NCBI GenBank assembly: GCA_965224085.1
Contig: CBDCYI010000005.1
Location: forward strand, 448,001-512,000
DNA from: Candidatus Marinacidobacterales bacterium
GTDB lineage: Bacteria > Acidobacteriota > Vicinamibacteria > Marinacidobacterales > SMYC01
Length of the DNA: 64,000 nucleotides
Direction: 5' to 3'
Positions 1,925-13,504 of the stretch are shown here, one piece after another. The notes under the pieces were generated by a model that worked only from the letters and a program-made list of their open reading frames with translations, did not search any database and was not told the DNA's origin. Made by a program: the position numbers and the translations under genes. Positions within the stretch are counted from its first letter, which is position 1; each line of letters begins with the position of its first letter.

Positions 1925-3560
1925 TCAGAAACGGTAGCGGATACCGAACTGCGCCTGTCGTGAATCGCCGACCCGGTTCAATGCTGTGAACGTGGAGCGA
2001 CTGAAGTTCGTATTCGTGGTCCTTCGATTGGCGCTGTTGAACAAATTGAACACGTCCAAAAGAAGCTCGAGACTCCCCGCCGAACCGAAATCGAGCGCTT
2101 TCGAGAGGCGAATGTCCACATTGTAGAAACTCGGCTGGCGAGCGCTGTTCCGCGGCTGGAGGCCGTCCGGGGTATCGAGTCCGGATGGACAGTTCGAGCT
2201 GTCGATCACGGGACGATCATTCCGTAGGCCGTCTCCGTTGTCGTCGAAGCCGGACGTGATGTTGTAGGGATCGCCGGTGTTCATGATGATCGTTGAGCTG
2301 AGCTGGACGTCCGCTGGCAATGCCCAGACGACGCTTCCAACGAAGCGGTGGCGCACGTCACGATCACTGGGTCCGCGATCGACACCAAAGCTCTCGGGTT
2401 GCGACGGCCCGATCCCGGTTGCGCTGCGCTCATTGTCGTCTTCCGAGACGTTGTCCGAATAAGTGTAGTAGGCCTGAAAGAGCGAGCCTCCCGACAATCG
2501 TTTCCGGGCGGAGAAGACGAAGGCATAGTAGCGGCCGTTGGCATTCGACTGGTTGAGGGCTAGCCGACGGAAGCGTGGACCGGGACGGTTCCTGGAATCG
2601 AATAGCGCGCGTCCAAGCCCGTCAGTTTGCCCTGTATCCGTAATGTTGAGATCGACTCGCCTCTGGCCACGATCGGAGTCTGCATAGACGACGTCGACAC
2701 CCACGGAGAGATTCTGGACGACCTCACGCTCCACACCGACGTTGAAACGGGTGATTCGAGGGTTGCGAAAATCGGGATCCCAGAAAAAAACGTCCACCGG
2801 AATCGCTTCCAGCTGTGCGGAAAGAGGATCGTCGGGCGGCAGGCCCGCTTCGGGAAAAATTCCCGGAAACGTAAACGGCAGTACATCGAACCCGCTGCGA
2901 AGATCCACGGTTCCCTGACGAAAACCGTTATTAGTGAGGATGTTGGCGATCAAGAGCAGGGGTGTCCGTGAATAAAAAATACCCGCGCCGCCTCGGATGA
3001 CCGTCCGACCGTCATTGTTCGGGTCCCAGGCGATGCCGAATCGAGGAGCCCATTGGTTCCAGTCGTCAACGACCTCCTGTTGATCGAGGCCGAAAATATC
3101 GCCCGGTTCTTTGGGGTTGCGCGTCGGATTTCCGAATTGCTCCGTTGGGACGGTCGGATTGTCGAGTCCTTCCCACCTGAGGCCCGCGTTGACGGTCAAA
3201 CCAGGCTTCGGACGCCACGTATCCTGAACGTAGAGCGCGTACTCGTTTTGACCGAAATCGACGCTGCCCGATTGAAGTGTCGTGAAGCCGTTCAGCCCAA
3301 CGAGCTGCCGGAATCGGTTGGGGTTGCTGGCGATGTAGTCCTCGAGCGTGTTGAAGTCCCACTGCCCGCCGGAAAAGCCGATAAATGCTTGCTTGGTGTT
3401 CGTGAGGTTGATATCACCACCGACTTTCAGATCATGAGTACCGAACAAATACGTGAAGTTATCCGTGATTTGAAGGCGCGTATGCTCTGATGTGATCGGT
3501 AGAAATCCGGTGCGGCCAAAGTCTCCGACGTCACCGATGTTGACCTCGGGAACCTCGTTG
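1925..3560 (-). pseudogene. TonB-dependent receptor (Oar-like), C-terminal barrel only
   Basis: YALYVQDTWR..LTVNAGLRWE, APRFGIAWDP, DVFNLFN, terminal QFGIRYRF; plug and N-terminus missing. Confidence 0.88.
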
Positions 3561-4505
3561 GTAGCCCCGAGACGCGGCCGGCGCACCGGCTTGAACCGGG
3601 TGCGTGACGTCGACACAACCCACCTCATGATGCGCGAGCTCGACCTCCAACAACAGCTTCGCGCGATCGAAGATCCGTCTCGCAACATCACCCTCGACGA
3701 GCTCGTGGAGACTCGGGCCAGCTTCGATCATCTTCCCGTTCTCGCCGCCGCCGGCATTGTCTATGGCGGGGCCGAGGCCAAGATTCCGGTGAGCTTCGCC
3801 GTGCCGTACAGCGCATTGGGCCGCGAACGCTCCGCCGAACAAGTGCAATACCGTCTCGACTATCTTGTGCGGCTCATGAATGACGAAGAAGTAGAGGTGG
3901 CGCGTCGAGAGGACGCTCTTACGATCCGCCTTCCCGCGGATCAAGAGGCACGATCGAAGCAGAGAATGCTGAACTTCGAGGAGAGTCTCACCGCTGAGCC
4001 CGGCCGCTATCGACTCCAGGTGTTCGTCCGAGACCTACGTCGTGAAGCGCTCGGGGTATTCGAACGTGACCTCGAGGTCGCGCCGGCGCGAGACGGCGGC
4101 CTGTCTCTCAGCTCTCTTTTCGTTGCGGGTGCCATCATCAAAGGAGCCTCTCTCGCGACACCTCGGCCGTTTCGATTCGGGCCGGTGCGCGTCGTACCTA
4201 GCCTGGATGCAAGCTTCGGGCAGGATCAGAGTGTGGCGTTCTACCTCGAGGCATACGGAACTCAGAACGACGTCGACGAGCGCAAACGTATCCGAGTCGA
4301 GATCTTCGTGATGCGGGACGACCGGCTGTTCATGGGCATCCCTACCAGTTTTCTCCGACCGGCCGCCGAACCCGTAGGGATCAGCGCGATGATTCCACTC
4401 CGCAAGTGCTCCCCAGGCGACTACGTGCTTCGCATCCGAGTAACCGATGAAGTGACGGGCGAGCGATTGGAAAGGGAATCGTCATTCACCGTCCGCGGCG
4501 AGTAA
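3560..4505 (+). pseudogene. GWxTD-associated protein, C-terminal fragment
   Basis: PGRYRLQVFVRD, LSLSSL, F.FG..RVVPS, PGDYVLRIRVTDEVTG typical of GWxTD/VWA C-terminal domains; no N-terminus. Confidence 0.65.
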
Positions 4506-4694: not shown

Positions 4695-6540
4695 ATGAAA
4701 CGTTACCGCGACAGTCGATGGGATCCTCGTTGCCGGAGTTGCGATCCTCGCCTACGTCAACAATCTAGGCAACGGCTTCGCCTACGACGACCGTTTCATC
4801 ATCGAACAGAACCCGCTCGTCCAGAGCCTCGATTGGTGGGGACTCGTTACGGCAAGCTATTGGGGCGAGATCGTCCACGCTGAACTCTATCGACCGCTCA
4901 CGCTCACAAGCTTTGGACTGAACCGAGCGCTAGGCGTGAGCTCCTTTGGCTTTCACCTCGTGAACGATCTCCTTCATGCAGGCGCGAGTGTTGTGGTTCT
5001 ACTCGTCGCGCGCGCACTCGGTCTGTGCCGCTACGTTTGTCTCGCGGCCGCGCTTCTCTTCGCGCTTCACCCCATCCAAACCGAAGCCGTCAACGCGATC
5101 GTGGGGCGCGGCGAAATCCTCGCCTTCGTTTTCGCGATCGGCGCGTTTCTGCTCTACGTACGAAAGAAGCACGCGGTTTTGGTCGGCCTGCTTTTTTTTC
5201 TCGCACTGTGCTCAAAGGAGAGTGCGGCCTTCGCCCTCCCGCTCTTCGCGCTTTATTGGCTCCTGTTCGAGCGTCGCGATCTGCTCCCCATGGCGGGCGC
5301 TGTCATCGTCTATGTGGCGCTCCGAGTGAGCGCGCTCGGCGGATTTGGCATCGGCGGCCGCGAGATTGGCTTTCTCGACAACCCCATCGCTGGCGCGCCC
5401 GTCGCGAGCCGTGTGTTGACCGCACCAGCCCTTCTCGCGAAATATGCCGGGCTCGTGCTTTGGCCGGGACCACTCTCCGCGGACTATTCCTACAACCAAA
5501 TCCCCATCCCGAGCTCGCTCGACTTTCGCGTCCTCGTTGGGCTCGCCATCGTCGTCGGGCTTTCGTTGCTGGCGTGGAAGCGGCGCGGAGCGGTCGCGTT
5601 CGCGGCGATGGCGTTCCTTCTGCCGCTCGCGGGATTTCTTCACATCATCTTTCCGCTCGGATCCCTGTTCGCGGAGCGGCTCACCTACCTCCCGATGCTC
5701 GGCGCGGCCCTTCTCATAGCACTTGCACTGAATGCGCTCCCTCGCCGCTCGGTGCTACTCGTGGTCCTCGTCGTCGCCTGCGCGGCGCGCGTCGTCGCGC
5801 GCAACCGAGACTGGCTCGACAACGAGACACTGTTTCGCCGGACGGTGGCCACGTCGCCGCAGAGCGCGCGAAGCCACTTCCTGCTCGGCGCCGAGCTTCT
5901 CGAGCAAGCACGCTTCGACGAGAGCGCGGCTTTTTTTGAAGCCGGGCTCCAAATCGCCCCGCAGCATATCGGCGCTCGGATGAGCCTCGGTGAGACGCAG
6001 CTAGGAGCGGGAAATCCTGTCGAGGCGCACGCCGCCTTCGAGGATGCGCTCGCGCGCGCGCCCGGGGACGAGATTCGTGAGTGGGCGCTCAGGGCCGCGC
6101 TGGCAGCGGGACGGGAGCGCGCACGCAACGGCATCTGGGACGACGCCCACCGCCTATTCGAGCGCGCGCTCGAGCTCGACCCTCGAAACGTCGACGCAAG
6201 AAACTCGCTCGGCCTCGTTGCCGAGCGACAAGGCGACGCCGACACCGCACGAGGTCACTACGAGAGGGCGCTCGTCATCGAAGCCGACTACACGCCCGCC
6301 ATCCTGAACCTCGCCAGCGTGCGCATGCAGATGGGCGAGCTTGAAGCCGCGGTCGAGCTTTTTTCGAGAGCCGTGGCTCTCGCGCCGAGCTCGTACGAGG
6401 CCTACAATGGCCTGGGGATCGCCATGGCACGACAGGGACGAAACGACGAGGCCGAAGCGGCTTTTCGAAAAGCGCTCGCGATCGATCCCGAGCTCGATGC
6501 CGCGCGGGACAACCTCCGCGCGCTCGGGAAAATGCCATGA
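4695..6540 (+). CDS. TMTC-like (GT-C) protein O-mannosyltransferase with C-terminal TPRs; apparent +1 frameshift near 4722
   Basis: Frame upstream of 4936 reads ILVAGVAILAYVNNLGNGFAYDD..LYRPLT; LFALHPIQTEAV, SKESA, LSADYS, FAERLTYLP, RNRDW; ATG 4695 is off by one G. Confidence 0.85.
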
Positions 6541-7913
6541 GCTTCGTCCTCAGAGCGCTTCTTTTTTTGGGAGCTCTCACGCAAGATCCTGTGCAGGAAG
6601 CCCGGGCGCTCGTAGAACAAGGGCAGAGCCTTCAGGCGCTCCAGGTGCTCGAAAAGGCCTCGCGCGCGCGGCCGGATGACGCCGCAATCCAGCTTGCGCT
6701 CAGCGCGCTCTATGCGGCCGGTGGACGGGTCGAGGAGGCCCTCCGGCACGTCGAGCGCGCGGTGGCGCTAGCGCCGAACGACACGTCCTACGCCTACGCC
6801 CAGGGAGAGCTTCTCTACCGCAGCGGGCGTATCGAGGAAGCCAAAGCGGCGCTCGAAAAGGCCGCCGACGTTCCCGAATCGCTAATCCTGCTCGCCGCCG
6901 TCTACGAGAAGCTCGGGCCGAAAGACGCGATGTTCTCTGCGCTCGGCCGCTATCTCGAGCTCCGGCCAGAAGACCAAAGCGCGCGGCTCATGCTCGGCCA
7001 GAAGCTCGAGGCGGAAAAGCGCTACGACGACGCGCTCGTTGCATACCGGGGCGGCCCGGACGATCCCCTGCTGCTCTATCACGTCGCCAATCTGTTGAGC
7101 CGCGATCGTGAGAGCTATGCAGAAGCCGAAGCGCAAGTGCGCAAGGCGCTCGAAATCTCTCCCGAGATGCTCGCAGCACGACTCCTTCTCACGCGCATTC
7201 TCGAGCGCACCGAGCGTGATGAGGAAGCGCTCCCGGAGCTCGAAAGAGCACGGAAGGACCATCCGGAAGCATCCCAGGTCTATTACAACCTCGCGACGGC
7301 TTATCGGCGGGCGGGCCGGATCGACGAGGCCCAGGACGCGGCTGCGCGGTTCCAGGAGCTCAGCCGAGAAGAGCAAGCCAAAGACGAGCGCGAAGCTCGA
7401 AGCGCCGCAACTTACAAACGCGCCGTCGATCTTCTCACTCGCGGGAACATGCGCGAGGCCGAAAGCGTTTTTGCGAGCGTGCTCGATATCGACCCAGAGC
7501 ACTCCCTCGCGCGCTCGATGCTCGCGAAGATTGCTTTTTCCAAAGGCGACGTCCAAGCCGCCTATGAGTGGATCACCGAAGCCATCGAAAAAGACGACGG
7601 TGTCGGTGAGTTCTACTATCTCGCGGCTCTCTTTCTCATGCGGGCGGGAAAACTAGCGGAAGCGAAGCCCGCCGTCGAGCGGGCCGTACGCCTCGACGAG
7701 GCCTTCCCAGATGCGTGGTCGCTTCTGGGCTCTATCTTGATGGATTCGAAGGACCCAGAACAAGCGGTGGAATGTTTCTCGCATGCGGCCGCGCTCGAGC
7801 CCCAAAACGCCACGACCCAGCTGAACCTCGCTTCAGCCTACGCCGCGCTCGGGAACACGGCCGAAGAGCAAGCCGCGATGGCCCGCTATCACGAGCTGAG
7901 CGCACGGCGCTAG
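6537..7913 (+). CDS. Exported tetratricopeptide repeat protein
   Basis: Signal peptide plus many TPR units; ATGA overlap with upstream gene. Confidence 0.85.
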   Translation: MSFVLRALLFLGALTQDPVQEARALVEQGQSLQALQVLEKASRARPDDAAIQLALSALYAAGGRVEEALRHVERAVALAPNDTSYAYAQGELLYRSGRIEEAKAALEKAADVPESLILLAAVYEKLGPKDAMFSALGRYLELRPEDQSARLMLGQKLEAEKRYDDALVAYRGGPDDPLLLYHVANLLSRDRESYAEAEAQVRKALEISPEMLAARLLLTRILERTERDEEALPELERARKDHPEASQVYYNLATAYRRAGRIDEAQDAAARFQELSREEQAKDEREARSAATYKRAVDLLTRGNMREAESVFASVLDIDPEHSLARSMLAKIAFSKGDVQAAYEWITEAIEKDDGVGEFYYLAALFLMRAGKLAEAKPAVERAVRLDEAFPDAWSLLGSILMDSKDPEQAVECFSHAAALEPQNATTQLNLASAYAALGNTAEEQAAMARYHELSARR

Positions 7914-9242
7914 AGCTAGTCTCCGCTCGAGTCGCACCCTCATCGCACCTTCACCACGATTTCGACGGTCGCGGCGCCGGAAAAGACACGTCCCATCGAC
8001 GTCTTCGCAAACGTAATAGAGAGCGTAAGCGGGAATCGTAACGTCTCCCTCGAAATCCGAGGGCGTCTGCAGCTCGAACTCGACATGTCTCGGCTCTCGA
8101 CTCACCGGCTCGGGCGGGATGGCGACGGCGTGGCGCCGGGCATCCACTTGCCATCCGTCGGGAACGTCCACCCAGAAGACGGTGTCGTCCACTTCGTTGT
8201 TCCAATGAGCTTTCTTCGAGAGGTCGGGCCGAAAGACGACGTGCACCCTCACACTCTTGCCGGGAGCGACCCTCGACGGAACCATCACCGTCTCGACGCC
8301 GATGAGCGGCGCTTCGTCTCGGAAGATGCGCCCCTCTGGATCGGGCGGCTCGCGCTCGGTTCCCGAGCTGATGAACGCCTTCACGGGCTCGGCAAACTCG
8401 GCGCCCCTGGGCTCGACCGCGAGTGCTATGGCCGTCTCTCCGCGCGCTTCGATCGCGGCGCGCGCTTCGGGAACCCAGTCATAAAAGGGGTACGGCTTGT
8501 CGAGCGGGGGTCCATATTGCTGGATACGTCGGCGGAAGATGTACTGGTTCGGGTCGAGCTCGAGAGCTTGCACCCAGTGCTCGACCGCCTTCGCGAAGTC
8601 GTCAGGCTTCCGCGCGTCGGAGTCGTAGCGCTTGCGATAGGCTACGCCGAGACGAAAGTGCGCGCGCGCGTCGGGCTCGGCGACGCGCTTTAGGAGGCCG
8701 GCAATCGCGTCGCTCACGTCGCCGCCCCAAAGGAGCACGTGCTCCGGCGAATCCTCGGCAACGTCGAGCTCCGTTCCCCGGCCGGGCACATGCGTGTAAT
8801 CCGTCGTGAGGAAAACCTCGAGGTCCTCGTCGCTAGGCCGTTCGTAGCGGACGATGCCCGCTTCGTCGATGAGATAGGTGAGCGGCACCGCCAAGACGTC
8901 GAGCAAGTTCAGCGAATCGATGAGAAGCGGCCAGCTCATTTCCTTCCACTGCATGAACAGGCGGGTACGGTCGGGATGTTGCTCTTCGATGATGCCGACC
9001 ATCTGGAGCTTGCCTTCGTCTTGAAGCGTCTTCGTTCTCTCGTGCCACCCGGGCACGTGCTTGCGGCAGCCCGCTCACCAGGAGGCCCACACATGGAGCA
9101 TCACCTTCTCGCCGCGGAAGTCCTGGAGCGAGAGCGGGACTCCGTCATCGCTCGATGGAAGCGTCAGCGCGGGCGCGGGCGCGCCGACCGTGAACGGCGA
9201 AGGCGCGGCCGCGAGCATCAAAGCGAAAGCAAAAGCCGGCAT
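7833..9242 (-). CDS. Putative selenoprotein: signal peptide + TlpA/redoxin domain (UxxC) + TPR + DsbD-N-like domain
   Basis: GAGAGG RBS, ATG 9242, frame MPAFAFALMLAAAP..SLQDFRGEKVMLHVWASW-TGA(9077-9075)-AGCRKH continues in frame into ORF 7833..9056; YYVCEDVDGTC near C-terminus; probable late frameshift, true stop near 7940. Confidence 0.85.
9041..9057 (-). promoter_or_regulatory. Candidate bacterial SECIS element
   Basis: CGUGCC-CGGGU-GGCACG hairpin starting 17 nt 3' of the in-frame UGA, with G-containing apical loop. Confidence 0.7.
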
Positions 9243-9320
9243 AGCGAACACCTCTCGACCATCAATCTACCATGACCACGCAACGCTTCGATTGTCGGCG
9301 GGAAACGGTACCATTACCGC

Positions 9321-9734
9321 ATGAGCGAGACGCCGACATCCATTCTCTTTCTCTGCGTCGCCAACTCGGCGCGGAGCCAAATGGCGGAAGGGCTGGCCCG
9401 CTCTCTCGCGCCCGAAGGAGTCGCGATCCTGAGCGCCGGCTCGATGCCGGCCCAAGTGAACCCCTACGCGATCGAGGTCATGAGCGAGATTGGGATCGAT
9501 CTTTCGACGCATCACGCAAAGTCCGTCGACGACATCCCCAAAGAGGAGGTCGCGACCGTCATCACGCTCTGCGCCGAAGAGGTGTGCCCGGTTTTCCCGG
9601 GCGAGGTGGAAAAGCTACATTGGCCGCACAAAGACCCCGCGGGCACCGTCGGATCGAAAGAAGAGATACTCGAATCGTTCCGCCGCGTTCGCGATCAAAT
9701 CCGCTCCAAGCTCGTCGCATTCTTCGAAAGGTAG
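9321..9734 (+). CDS. arsC: Arsenate reductase, thioredoxin-coupled (LMW-PTP fold)
   Basis: [13 protein letters not shown]-loop, TLCAEEVCP resolving cysteines, HW..KDPA. Confidence 0.9.
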
Positions 9735-9740
9735 ACCCAG

Positions 9741-10288
9741 ATGTTTTGGATGCTGAACTGGATGCTTCTTCTGCTTCTCGCCGCCGAGAACTCGCCGTTC
9801 GCTGAGCTCGAGTGGCGCAATATTGGCCCTGCTGTCATGGGAGGCCGCGCCTCCGACATCGAAGGCGTGCCGGGCGATCCGCGCATCGTCTATGCCGCGG
9901 CCGCTTCCGGCGGTGTATGGAAGACCACCGATGGCGGCATCAAGTGGCAGCCGATCTTCGACGAGCAGCCGGTCGCTTCGATTGGCGACATTGCGCTCGA
10001 GCCGGGGAATCCGGCCGTTCTCTACGTGGGCACGGGCGAAGCCAATCTTCGCAACAGCGTCTCCTTCGGAAACGGTGTCTACAAAACGACCGATGGCGGC
10101 GAAAGCTGGAAGCATCTCGGCCTCGAGGACACGCGCCACATCTCCCGCATCCTCATCGACCCGAAAGAGCCGAAGCGGGTCTACGTGGGCGCTCTGGGCC
10201 ACGCTTTCGGACCCAATGAAGAGCGAGGCGTCTTTCGAAGCGTGGATGGCGGCGAGCATTGGGAGAAGGTGCTCTACGTCGACGAGCG
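9741..10288 (+). pseudogene. VPS10/sortilin-like BNR glycosyl hydrolase, N-terminal fragment
   Basis: LEWRNIGPAVMGGR, GGVWKTTDGG, GNGVYKTTDGGESW; paralog of 49407..52520; similarity ends at VLYVDE. Confidence 0.85.
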
Positions 10289-10998
10289 ACAGCACGTCGT
10301 GCACCGGAACCCTCGTCGGACCGAGGCACGTGGTGACGGCGGGACACTGCGTCAAGGGCGGCGGCAACATATGGTATGACTTCTTCGTGATCCCGGGTCG
10401 CGATGGAACACTCTCGCCCTACGGGTCGGCTCACATGAGCGACACCGAGGGGCTGAACACTGGATTTCGCTGGTACTGGATCCCGGCGGCGGCTGTCAAC
10501 ACCCCCGGCAACTGGTACACGGGCCTTGACATCGCCATCCTCATCCTCCCCCAGCGGCTGGGAGACGTGGCCGGGTGGATGGGCACGGCAGCGCGATCGG
10601 AGAACGCGCTGACCTCGTCGTACCAGCGGAATCTCGGCTACCCGGCTCAGTCCGGGGGATCGCCCATCGGCTACCACGCCAGCCTGGTCGAGGGTGCGCT
10701 CTACGGGGACCTCAACCAGTGCAACGTCGGCGACTACGACCACTACGACGCCCAGGGGTGGGCCCGGCTGGCCAATCACGCCTGCGACCTCACGTCGGGC
10801 CACAGCGGCGGCCCGATCTACCACTGGTTCTTCGATCCCCCAAACGGGTCGTTTCCAGTGGTGAGCCTGATCATCAGTCACCATTCGGCCTTTGCGAACG
10901 ACTTCGACTGTCCTAACAATCCCCGGCCGTACAGCGCCACGAGAATCACCGCGGAGTACATCAACCAGCTTCTGTTCATGTTGAGCTGGAAGCCCTGA
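10289..10998 (+). pseudogene. Trypsin-like (V8/glutamyl endopeptidase) serine protease fragment lacking N-terminus
   Basis: CTGTLVGPRHVVTAGHC, LDIAIL, CDLTSGHSGGP catalytic triad motifs. Confidence 0.8.
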
Positions 10999-12627: not shown

Positions 12628-13335
12628 TTAGCGCGGGATGCGCTTGAAGACGAATGTCCCGACGGGAACGCGATTTCCGTTCTGGACAAAGTCGCCGTTC
12701 GTGAGCGCTTTGGTCGCGGCTTTCGGGTTCAAGTCCTGATCGTCCGCCATGTAGCGGGTACCGGCATCTCCACCCGAATCCCAGGCGTAGACGGTGACCG
12801 CCATCGAGGAAACCCAGCGGCCATCTTGCTGCAGGCTGACGTCGGACACGCCGTAGAACCAGTCCGGGCTCGGCGCGATCATGCCTACCAAAGATACCCG
12901 CGGAAAGGTTGTCGAGACCTCGAACATCGAGCTAATGGTCGGGTGAACCGGGCCGGGGCTGGCATCGGCGAAACGGATGAGTGTCCCGACCTTGCCGCTG
13001 TGTATGGCTGATTGAATCTCTTGATCGAGAGGATCATGCTTGCCCATTTCGGACAGTCGCTCCAAACCCGGAGACGGCGTTTTTCCTTTCGCAAACAGGC
13101 TGAACGCGTCCGCGTGCGTCGCGCCGATGACGGGCGTCAGAAGCCCCTTCTTAGCGTGAGTGATTGGATAGTCCGTGGGATGCGTCGCGGGGTTCCAGGA
13201 CGGCGCAAAAGTGACCGTGTAAGCCGCTCGGTCCACGGAAGAGGCCCCATCATCCTCGGCCAGGGAAACTATCGCGCCGAGACAAACTATGGAGCCAGAA
13301 AGGGCCATTTTCGCGATCGTGCTTTTCAAATACAT
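12628..13335 (-). CDS. Secreted Spondin_N domain protein
   Basis: AGGAGG RBS; YTVTF..W..THP, IGATH, MIAPSPDWFYG, AWDSGGDAG. Confidence 0.88.
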   Translation of the reverse strand: MYLKSTIAKMALSGSIVCLGAIVSLAEDDGASSVDRAAYTVTFAPSWNPATHPTDYPITHAKKGLLTPVIGATHADAFSLFAKGKTPSPGLERLSEMGKHDPLDQEIQSAIHSGKVGTLIRFADASPGPVHPTISSMFEVSTTFPRVSLVGMIAPSPDWFYGVSDVSLQQDGRWVSSMAVTVYAWDSGGDAGTRYMADDQDLNPKAATKALTNGDFVQNGNRVPVGTFVFKRIPR

Positions 13336-13504
13336 TGAAAACCTCCTGAATTCTGTTTGTGAGAGCCCCACATTTCGCCTCGTCCGGAGCTCGTTAACGG
13401 ATTCTTAGGCTTGGATTCCCAGCTTGCCCAAAGGTTTCAGGAAATTTCATCGTGCTCTGTTTTCGAGCCAGGTGACACGTCGCTCGAATAAGCGGTCATA
13501 ATAG

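Follow-up and report, generated by a model that had tools for sequence, protein, structure and literature searches.

A probable selenocysteine-encoding gene for a predicted exported TlpA-like oxidoreductase with two additional conserved domains

A gene on the minus strand of a 64,000-nt stretch of DNA from a Candidatus Marinacidobacterales bacterium (Acidobacteriota; GenBank assembly GCA_965224085.1, contig CBDCYI010000005.1, positions 448,001 to 512,000; hereafter the window) very probably encodes selenocysteine (Sec) in a predicted exported TlpA-like oxidoreductase that carries two further conserved domains. The genome has a size of 6.87 Mb (12 contigs), within which the window is located at C5:448001-512000. 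The redoxin gene starts at ATG 9242..9240 on the minus strand, and its frame as read ends at TGA 7835..7833. The sole internal TGA is codon 56 (9077..9075), which stands in the context V-W-A-S-W-U-A-G-C. In the standard-code list of open reading frames (ORFs), the gene opens at GTG 9056, a codon that falls within the RNA hairpin downstream of the UGA. All elements on which the original prediction was built, namely ATG 9242, a ribosome-binding site, the TGA at codon 56, the W-U-A-G-C motif and the hairpin, are present in the sequence. Its proposal of a hidden selenoprotein is supported by the conservation of both the UGA and the hairpin of selenocysteine insertion sequence (SECIS) type, by a complete Sec machinery and by a cysteine (Cys) homologue. 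The elements of the coding sequence, in window coordinates, are as follows:

7833..9242, minus strand: coding sequence with UGA56 read as Sec, 469 codons plus stop; the last 44 codons lie outside the frame of the family
9251..9256, minus strand: Shine-Dalgarno-like GAGAGG with an 8-nt spacer to ATG 9242, read directly from the sequence
9075..9077, minus strand: UGA codon 56, assigned to Sec; TGA in 80/80 loci holding the region
9041..9057, minus strand: SECIS-type hairpin, with stem 9057-9052 / 9046-9041 and loop CGGGU 9051-9047, 17 nt 3′ of the UGA

Conservation of UGA codon 56 and the selenocysteine machinery

The genome contains the genes for Sec synthesis and insertion that the original prediction had proposed to look for. 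The matches to selD (279.6 bits), selA (550.1 bits) and selB (364.9 bits) each exceed the family cut-off, and so does the tRNA-Sec at 74 bits, which ARAGORN calls as SeC with the anticodon tca. The SelD of this genome carries a fused N-terminal pyridine nucleotide-disulphide oxidoreductase domain in a frame of 742 aa (L001:1399-3627; C5:1545162-1546073 region). SelD fusions with such oxidoreductase domains are known.

Of 40 relatives searched in six frames, 13 gave strong full-length matches, all containing an internal TGA, and in the 15 loci fetched from these relatives and from the genome itself, the TGA occupied the W-A-S-W-_-A-G-C column without exception. In a scan of one genome per species, 345 relatives were confirmed and 80 were kept for comparison. 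This wider set, composed of the gene's own locus (L024) and 80 species-representative records, showed TGA at the column in 80 of 81 loci. The 81st locus (L076) begins downstream of the TGA column, which means that the region is absent from the record and that the codon is found in 80 of the 80 loci holding the region. The two counts overlap, with six of the 80 kept records being genomes already covered by the search of 40 relatives. According to their titles, the 80 records belong to at least six phyla (Acidobacteriota, Gemmatimonadota, Verrucomicrobiota, Planctomycetota, Chloroflexota/Anaerolineae and Latescibacterota). The motif across the kept loci reads [FW]-A-S-W-U-A-G-C, and the coding frame is conserved in the family comparison both 5′ and 3′ of the TGA. 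Elsewhere in the window TGA acts as an ordinary stop and terminates 24 of the 45 open frames of at least 300 codons, which argues that the codon has not been reassigned.

The top 120 database proteins span 63-83% of the query, measure 336-554 aa and are truncated at the N-terminus; they are either unnamed or annotated as hypothetical, tetratricopeptide repeat (TPR) or thioredoxin family proteins. Such truncation is the pattern expected from gene callers that resume downstream of the UGA. When a profile was searched against 1.84 billion representatives, 150 proteins were listed, and four of these were read. Because most rows of the underlying alignment are truncated database proteins, the profile starts just past the Sec column, lacks the N-terminal 60 residues and flags only N-terminally extended proteins. 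One of the four, P0267, is a protein of 500 aa in one unbroken frame with 35% identity over 440 residues, and a Cys is aligned with U56. The original prediction had suggested a search for homologues with either TGA or Cys at this column, and both are thus represented. The motif of P0267 is C-E-G-S, which corresponds to C-x-x-S compared with U-x-x-C, and a single Cys stands in place of the C-x6-C pair of the C-terminal domain. The joint absence of both resolving cysteines suggests, from this single case, a link between the two centres. Among the four proteins read of the 150 listed, P0267 is the sole Cys form; the N-terminus of P0198 is scrambled, and P0147 and P0204 are truncated in the ordinary way. 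A Cys form thus exists in at least one case, and it is distant and rare.

One contig of 189 nt from a single RNA library, identical to 8991..9179 and with a depth of 2.2, spans both the UGA and the hairpin. It gives no more than a hint, too weak for a claim of expression or read-through.

The RNA hairpin 3′ of UGA56

The hairpin downstream of the UGA has the sequence CGUGCC/CGGGU/GGCACG with a stem of 6 bp. The bSECISearch literature reportedly gives an expected range for the spacing between a UGA and its hairpin. An alignment of 54 nt from the UGA onwards (A1), containing 80 sequences in 78 distinct rows, was used to assess the helix. In its five-pair core (columns 22-26 with 32-36), standard pairing holds in all 80 sequences, and RNAalifold predicts the identical 5-bp helix. 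Two-sided compensatory changes (G-C to A-U and C-G to U-A) occur at three pairs in 5 cells, compared with a mean of 0.5 in shuffled alignments, and none of 500 shuffles reached this number. When the 3′ partner was slid by 1-3 columns, pairing dropped from 97.6% to 17-64%. In the loop, positions G28 and U31 of A1 are invariant.

The third codon positions within the stem point in the same direction. As a control, conserved four-fold degenerate codons were compared over 79 genes, which provided 38 sites outside codons 57-68. At these sites the commonest third base accounts for 49% on average and 77% at most, with a mean entropy of 1.65 bits. The commonest third base of V63 reaches 99% and that of P64 reaches 94%, with entropies of 0.10 and 0.41 bits, respectively. 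Third bases that are nearly fixed relative to the control sites show that the synonymous sites in the stem are frozen. Combined, these comparisons indicate that the hairpin is under selection as RNA.

The same element is recognizable in environmental sequences. Many metagenome contigs of other organisms, found in three runs, match only 9040..9083, a stretch of 44 nt from six bases 5′ of the UGA through the hairpin's 3′ arm, beyond which they diverge in either direction. The summed contig depth in the bin 9024-9074 amounts to 46.0 for X1, 103.9 for X2 and 222.7 for X5 (X1 and X2 come from two runs in two studies, and X5 from a third study), compared with about 24, 25.5 and 32-42, respectively, in the flanking bins. 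The module of UGA and SECIS-type hairpin is thus a nucleotide-level signature shared among species that occur together, and it offers a potential probe for the family.

Domain architecture and relation to known systems

The protein read through UGA56 is composed of the following parts:

9192..9242, minus strand: N-terminal hydrophobic leader MPAFAFALMLAAAPSPF, residues 1-17, a probable signal peptide as judged by eye
8805..9188, minus strand: TlpA/ResA-like thioredoxin-fold (Redoxin/AhpC-TSA) domain, residues 19-146, with U56-A-G-C59, assigned by Pfam and Foldseek
8445..8747, minus strand: helical TPR-like domain, residues 166-266, holding the family's best-conserved stretch (NQYI-RRRIQQYGP-LDKPYPFYDW)
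8313..8444, minus strand: conserved extended linker, residues 267-310, with invariant E277, P278, G280, A281, E282, A284, P300 and D301
7968..8312, minus strand: immunoglobulin (Ig)-like beta-sandwich, residues 311-425, with invariant H-W-N-N-E (346-350)
7986..8009, minus strand: C412-E-D-V-D-G-T-C419, the C-x6-C pair on the last beta-hairpin, present in 77/80 rows

The N-terminal domain had been proposed to be a TlpA-like redoxin, and both profile and fold comparisons agree with this assignment. Residues 19-135 match Pfam AhpC-TSA (PF00578) with 53.4 bits (cut-off 26) and Redoxin (PF08534) with 39.7 bits (cut-off 26.6). An AlphaFold2 model of the full protein, calculated from a 42-row alignment, has a predicted local distance difference test score (pLDDT) of 84.3 and a predicted template modelling score (pTM) of 0.84. 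In this model a disordered leader (residues 1-11, pLDDT < 50) is followed by a thioredoxin fold at about 20-146, in which the redox motif opens the helix 54-59 at the N-terminus of helix 1, and then by six short helices (166-266), the extended linker (267-310) and a beta-sandwich (314-426). A Foldseek search with the whole model returned ResA, DsbE and TlpA-like chains as the best matches, with E-values of 1e-8 to 1e-6 and a target-normalised TM-score of 0.63-0.74 for single-domain chains. The leaders of the homologues look Sec-type or lipoprotein-type by eye, and the leader in the window has no charged n-region; from these leaders we infer that the protein is probably exported.

Conservation of the helical and Ig-like domains matches that of the catalytic domain. 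Across the family it is highest in the segments Q-E-Q-H-P-x-R-x-R-L-F-M-Q-W, N-Q-Y-I-x-R-R-R-I-Q-Q-Y-G-P-x-L-x-K-P-Y-P-F-Y-D-W, H-W-N-N-E and Y-A-L-Y-Y-V-C-E-D. The TPR part of the original prediction holds insofar as a helical region does follow the redoxin domain; its repeat assignment comes down to a single partial match at residues 215-232, where TPR_1 (22.1 bits, cut-off 27.8) and TPR_2 (21.1 bits, cut-off 27) each align with one half-repeat below the gathering score. The longer homologues bear precomputed TPR matches. The label "TPR-like" is therefore fair for the family, although the protein in the window stays below the Pfam thresholds.

The C-terminal domain was modelled alone from the intact orthologue L044, which gave an Ig-like sandwich with a pLDDT of 84.3, in which the two cysteines flank the turn joining the last two strands. 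Fold searches with Foldseek and VIA-align returned generic sandwiches only, namely glycosidase accessory, macroglobulin MG and transglutaminase barrel domains, the top match being a glycosidase accessory domain with Z 10.7; neither search lists a DsbD chain among its rows. A PDB sequence search with the profile of this domain gave no matches at E ≤ 10. The domain had initially been described as DsbD-N-like. What remains of this description is a domain with a Cys pair, since its relationship to DsbD_N found little footing: hhalign against the three DsbD_N domains of the genome gave a probability of 1.8% and an E-value of 0.027 over 21 columns ending at the first Cys, and a six-frame DsbD_N scan of the genome at E ≤ 0.01 found those three other loci, the redoxin gene not being among them. 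The three DsbD_N domains end in Y-Q-x-C-x-D-x-x-C, which resembles the Y-Y-V-C-E-D-V-D-G-T-C of the redoxin protein. This likeness is a lead, not membership. A DsbD-type gene of 576 aa with DsbD_TM and Thioredoxin_7 domains is found elsewhere in the genome.

Selenoproteins of the redoxin or TlpA-like type with a UxxC motif have been catalogued (PMC13188914, Table 1), as have the Prx-like and Trx-like UxxC families of the Global Ocean Sampling (GOS) study (PMC2398784, Table 2). Like these families, the present protein has Sec in place of the first Cys of a CxxC motif, a redoxin/TlpA-like fold with PF00578 as the best Pfam match, and a SECIS hairpin just 3′ of the UGA. In contrast, the available portions of both papers mention no TPR-like or Ig-like extension, the word "tetratricopeptide" occurring nowhere in PMC13188914 and "TPR" nowhere in PMC2398784. 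Furthermore, the catalogued families have many Cys homologues (2,740 for Prx-like 1 in GOS; PMC2398784), whereas one Cys-type relative was found here. The available parts of the BSepDB (PMC13326102) and deep-Sep (PMC12013277) papers make no mention of TlpA or TPR, and the three-domain architecture was not found described in a full-text literature search, which covered main texts. The family may already be catalogued under a generic name, as it was set apart by descriptions and not by example accessions. The best NCBIfam match is NF041054, "ResA-like WAxxUGC motif-containing protein" (WAxxUGC_long), a family of exported ResA/TlpA-like selenoproteins that shares with this protein the W-A-x-x-U immediately before the redox motif. 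It scores 82.5 bits compared with a cut-off of 300, with the redoxin domain alone aligning (profile positions 81-197 of 354); its motif is U-G-C instead of U-A-G-C, and the remainder of the protein differs.

In comparison with ResA, CcmG (DsbE), TlpA, StoA and Etrx, the protein shares the fold, the predicted export and the W-preceded active site at the N-terminus of helix 1. These proteins carry Cys-x-x-Cys and consist of a single domain of ~140-180 aa with a membrane anchor, whereas the protein in the window has Sec and ~280 extra residues forming two conserved domains. DsbD and the C-terminal domains of M. tuberculosis DipZ (PDB 2hyx, 5cyy) combine a thioredoxin fold and a beta-sandwich in one exported chain, as is predicted for this protein. 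DipZ chains appear at ranks 37 and 50 of the Foldseek list for the whole model, with poor overall superposition (rmsd 18, TM 0.2-0.3). The Cys pair lies on a terminal hairpin after Y-x-x-C-x-D, as in the DsbD_N domains of the genome, with the spacing C-x6-C here and C-x4-C there; compared with DsbD, the protein has no transmembrane domain and the order of the domains is reversed. UxxC thioredoxin-fold selenoproteins are already known, and what appears new is the architecture and the near-obligate use of Sec.

Alternative readings and a working model

Several observations weigh against a Sec-containing oxidoreductase as the product of the gene. The Sec at UGA56 is a prediction from sequence comparison. 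Folded as a single sequence, the hairpin is no more stable than its shuffles (z = 0.58; 149 of 200 shuffles are equally or more stable), so that the case for it rests on comparison. Its outermost sixth pair is unpaired in 11 of the 78 distinct rows, and the covariation is thin, with its 5 cells, because the element is almost invariant. An Rfam scan of 8900..9200 gave no match at E ≤ 10, and Pfam DsbD_N (PF11412) has no match in the protein at E ≤ 0.1. No neighbour is conserved within 1.5 kb of the gene, the largest flank family occurring in 5 loci when 1065 flank ORFs from the motif-holding loci L044-L123 were clustered all-against-all; the gene context is therefore silent on a substrate or electron donor, and no operon partner can be proposed. 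Finally, the Ig-like domain encoded by the window allele misses its native last beta-strand, which may leave the protein impaired or inactive.

The last point arises from a frameshift that had escaped the original prediction: the final 44 residues as read (7967..7836) are its product. The features of this 3′ end are:

7967..7967, minus strand: extra base in the CC at 7968/7967 compared with both close orthologues; the frame is shifted after D425
7940..7942, minus strand: TGA that closes the family's frame once the extra base is removed (...D-V-E-I-V-V-K-V-R-stop), from sequence and orthologue alignment
7833..7967, minus strand: out-of-frame tail of 44 residues plus stop, with an 81-nt overlap with the 3′ end of the convergent TPR gene 6537..7913

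Intact relatives end with ...C-L-[FY]-R-R-x-D, a short alternating strand and a stop, and a DNA alignment with both closest orthologues revealed one surplus base in the window copy; its removal also abolishes the 81-nt overlap with the convergent gene. The contig of X1 (depth 23.9, no differences over the 765 bases of 7800..8564) and that of X2 (depth 25.5, no differences over the 1273 bases of 7800..9072) both carry the extra base, while the X5 contig (depth 32.1) is without the base at 7967 and otherwise identical over 7800..8159. The simplest reading is a real polymorphism, with the strain in the window holding a C-terminally altered allele. The chances are even that the Sec gene is real and that the window copy is a dying or impaired allele through a true 1-nt insertion at 7967. 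The extra base is missing in both closest orthologues and in every other intact member (ends of the form D-[VIL]-x-[VIL]-x-[VIL]...), present in contigs from two runs of two studies, missing in that of a third, and situated in a CC dinucleotide instead of a long homopolymer; in addition, the model of the new tail (residues 443-469) has a pLDDT below 50. Nevertheless, either X1 or X2 may be the source sample of the window, the studies may belong to one campaign, and Logan contigs lose rare variants. The gene contains no further lesion, and tail residues 434-438 are modelled with moderate confidence as a substitute strand, so that the fold might survive.

A second question is whether C412 and C419 take part in the redox chemistry. 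By analogy with the alpha and gamma domains of DsbD, the C-x6-C of the Ig-like domain might form a second redox centre that exchanges electrons with U-x-x-C, a tentative version of the relay put forward in the original prediction, to which we give less weight than to its competitor. The latter, which approaches an even chance, holds that the two cysteines form a structural disulfide of an Ig-like binding domain, leaving a single redox centre and extra domains that merely dock to a partner or to the envelope. The two cysteines flank the tight turn of the last two strands, a frequent place for disulfides in exported Ig-like domains; the fold searches with their generic Ig-like domains and the missing DsbD_N signal fit the same picture. 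Moreover, the intact locus L120 is without the first Cys of the pair and still has U-x-x-C. On the other hand, 77 of 80 rows retain the pair, and two of the three exceptions (L077 and L112, L120 being the third) are broken frames. The Y-A-L-Y-Y-V-C-E-D flank and H-W-N-N-E are invariant or nearly so, beyond the needs of a staple, and P0267 has lost the resolving Cys of CxxC together with the second Cys of the pair, albeit in a single case. The frames of L077 and L112 are broken within the gene, by assembly indels or by independent decay.

These broken frames and the X5 contig, which is without the base, would also fit a sequencing or assembly artefact at 7967, with the true end at TGA 7942..7940; independent per-run contigs of X1 and X2 both hold the base and show no other differences, and we regard an artefact as improbable. 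Least probable by far is that TGA codon 56 is a nonsense mutation or a true stop, leaving a pseudogene or a 55-residue peptide plus a 407-residue protein from GTG 9056: gene callers and databases do handle the gene in this way and the single-sequence energy of the hairpin is unremarkable, but TGA fills its column in 80/80 loci across phyla with the frame conserved on either side, the split would part strand 1 of the thioredoxin fold from its active-site helix, the synonymous sites of the hairpin are frozen, the Cys homologue runs in a single frame, and the Sec machinery in the genome together with the retention of TGA and hairpin in relatives excludes, for this TGA, the mutation in a decaying genome that the original prediction had named as the outcome speaking against it.

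The comparisons establish Sec coding, the fold assignments and the conservation; export, the direction of electron flow, the substrate and any relay of the oxidoreductase are inferred. SelB with Sec-tRNA(Sec) would bind the hairpin 17 nt 3′ of UGA56 and thereby direct the insertion of Sec as the first residue of U-A-G-C, at the N-terminus of helix 1 of a TlpA/ResA-type thioredoxin fold. After export, the protein would act as an extracytoplasmic thiol-disulfide (selenol/selenenylsulfide) oxidoreductase, in which Sec56 would make the nucleophilic attack and the mixed Se-S bond would then be resolved by Cys59. Return to the reduced state would most likely draw on the DsbD-type membrane electron supply of the cell, and the TPR-like and Ig-like domains may serve as modules for the recognition of partners or substrates. 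In DsbD, the thioredoxin-fold gamma domain takes up electrons from the membrane domain and hands them on to the Ig-fold alpha domain. A bolder version, which we consider rather unlikely, is a self-contained soluble two-centre periplasmic relay, equivalent to the gamma/alpha pair of DsbD minus the membrane domain, in which the helical domain (RRRIQQYGP...KPYPFYDW) would dock one specific envelope substrate and selenium would be obligatory. If this were true, the scarcity of Cys forms across six phyla would follow from a chemistry beyond the reach of Cys, for example the reduction of a metal-thiolate, a sulfenate or a very stable disulfide.

The neighbours of the redoxin gene in the window are the convergent TPR gene at 6537..7913, a low-molecular-weight (LMW) phosphatase/ArsC-like gene at 9321..9734 and a trypsin-like peptidase gene at 9823..10998. 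The LMW phosphatase-like gene, two TPR genes and the trypsin-like peptidase recur in 4, 1, 1 and 1 of 94 loci, respectively, and only in the closest relatives; the redoxin gene behaves as a stand-alone unit. The LMW phosphotyrosine phosphatase/ArsC-like gene (plus strand; Pfam LMWPc, 61.9 bits) is divergent and lies ~80 nt from the start of the selenoprotein gene. Two further genes of the window were noted. An OMP_b-brl_4 barrel gene of TonB type at 1925..3691 (minus strand) matches only profile positions 256-838 of 838, and a search of the three upstream minus-strand frames did not recover its expected N-terminal part; the gene may encode a receptor in truncated or diverged form. The bacterial ORF 12628..13371 (minus strand) encodes a Spondin_N domain (133.4 bits), which is better known in animal extracellular proteins.

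The gene is broken by the UGA in each kept locus that covers the region, and correct annotation would restore a predicted exported redox enzyme to several poorly studied phyla. Most selenoprotein families are outnumbered by their Cys versions, as stated in PMC13188914. The redoxin family described here is almost wholly Sec-dependent, and its module of UGA and hairpin is nearly identical in nucleotides across phyla. In addition, the window and X5 offer a natural pair of alleles, one base apart, one with and one without the last Ig-like strand. The family thus provides a clean case for studying what Sec is capable of compared with Cys in an oxidising cell envelope, and how recognition by SelB constrains a coding sequence.

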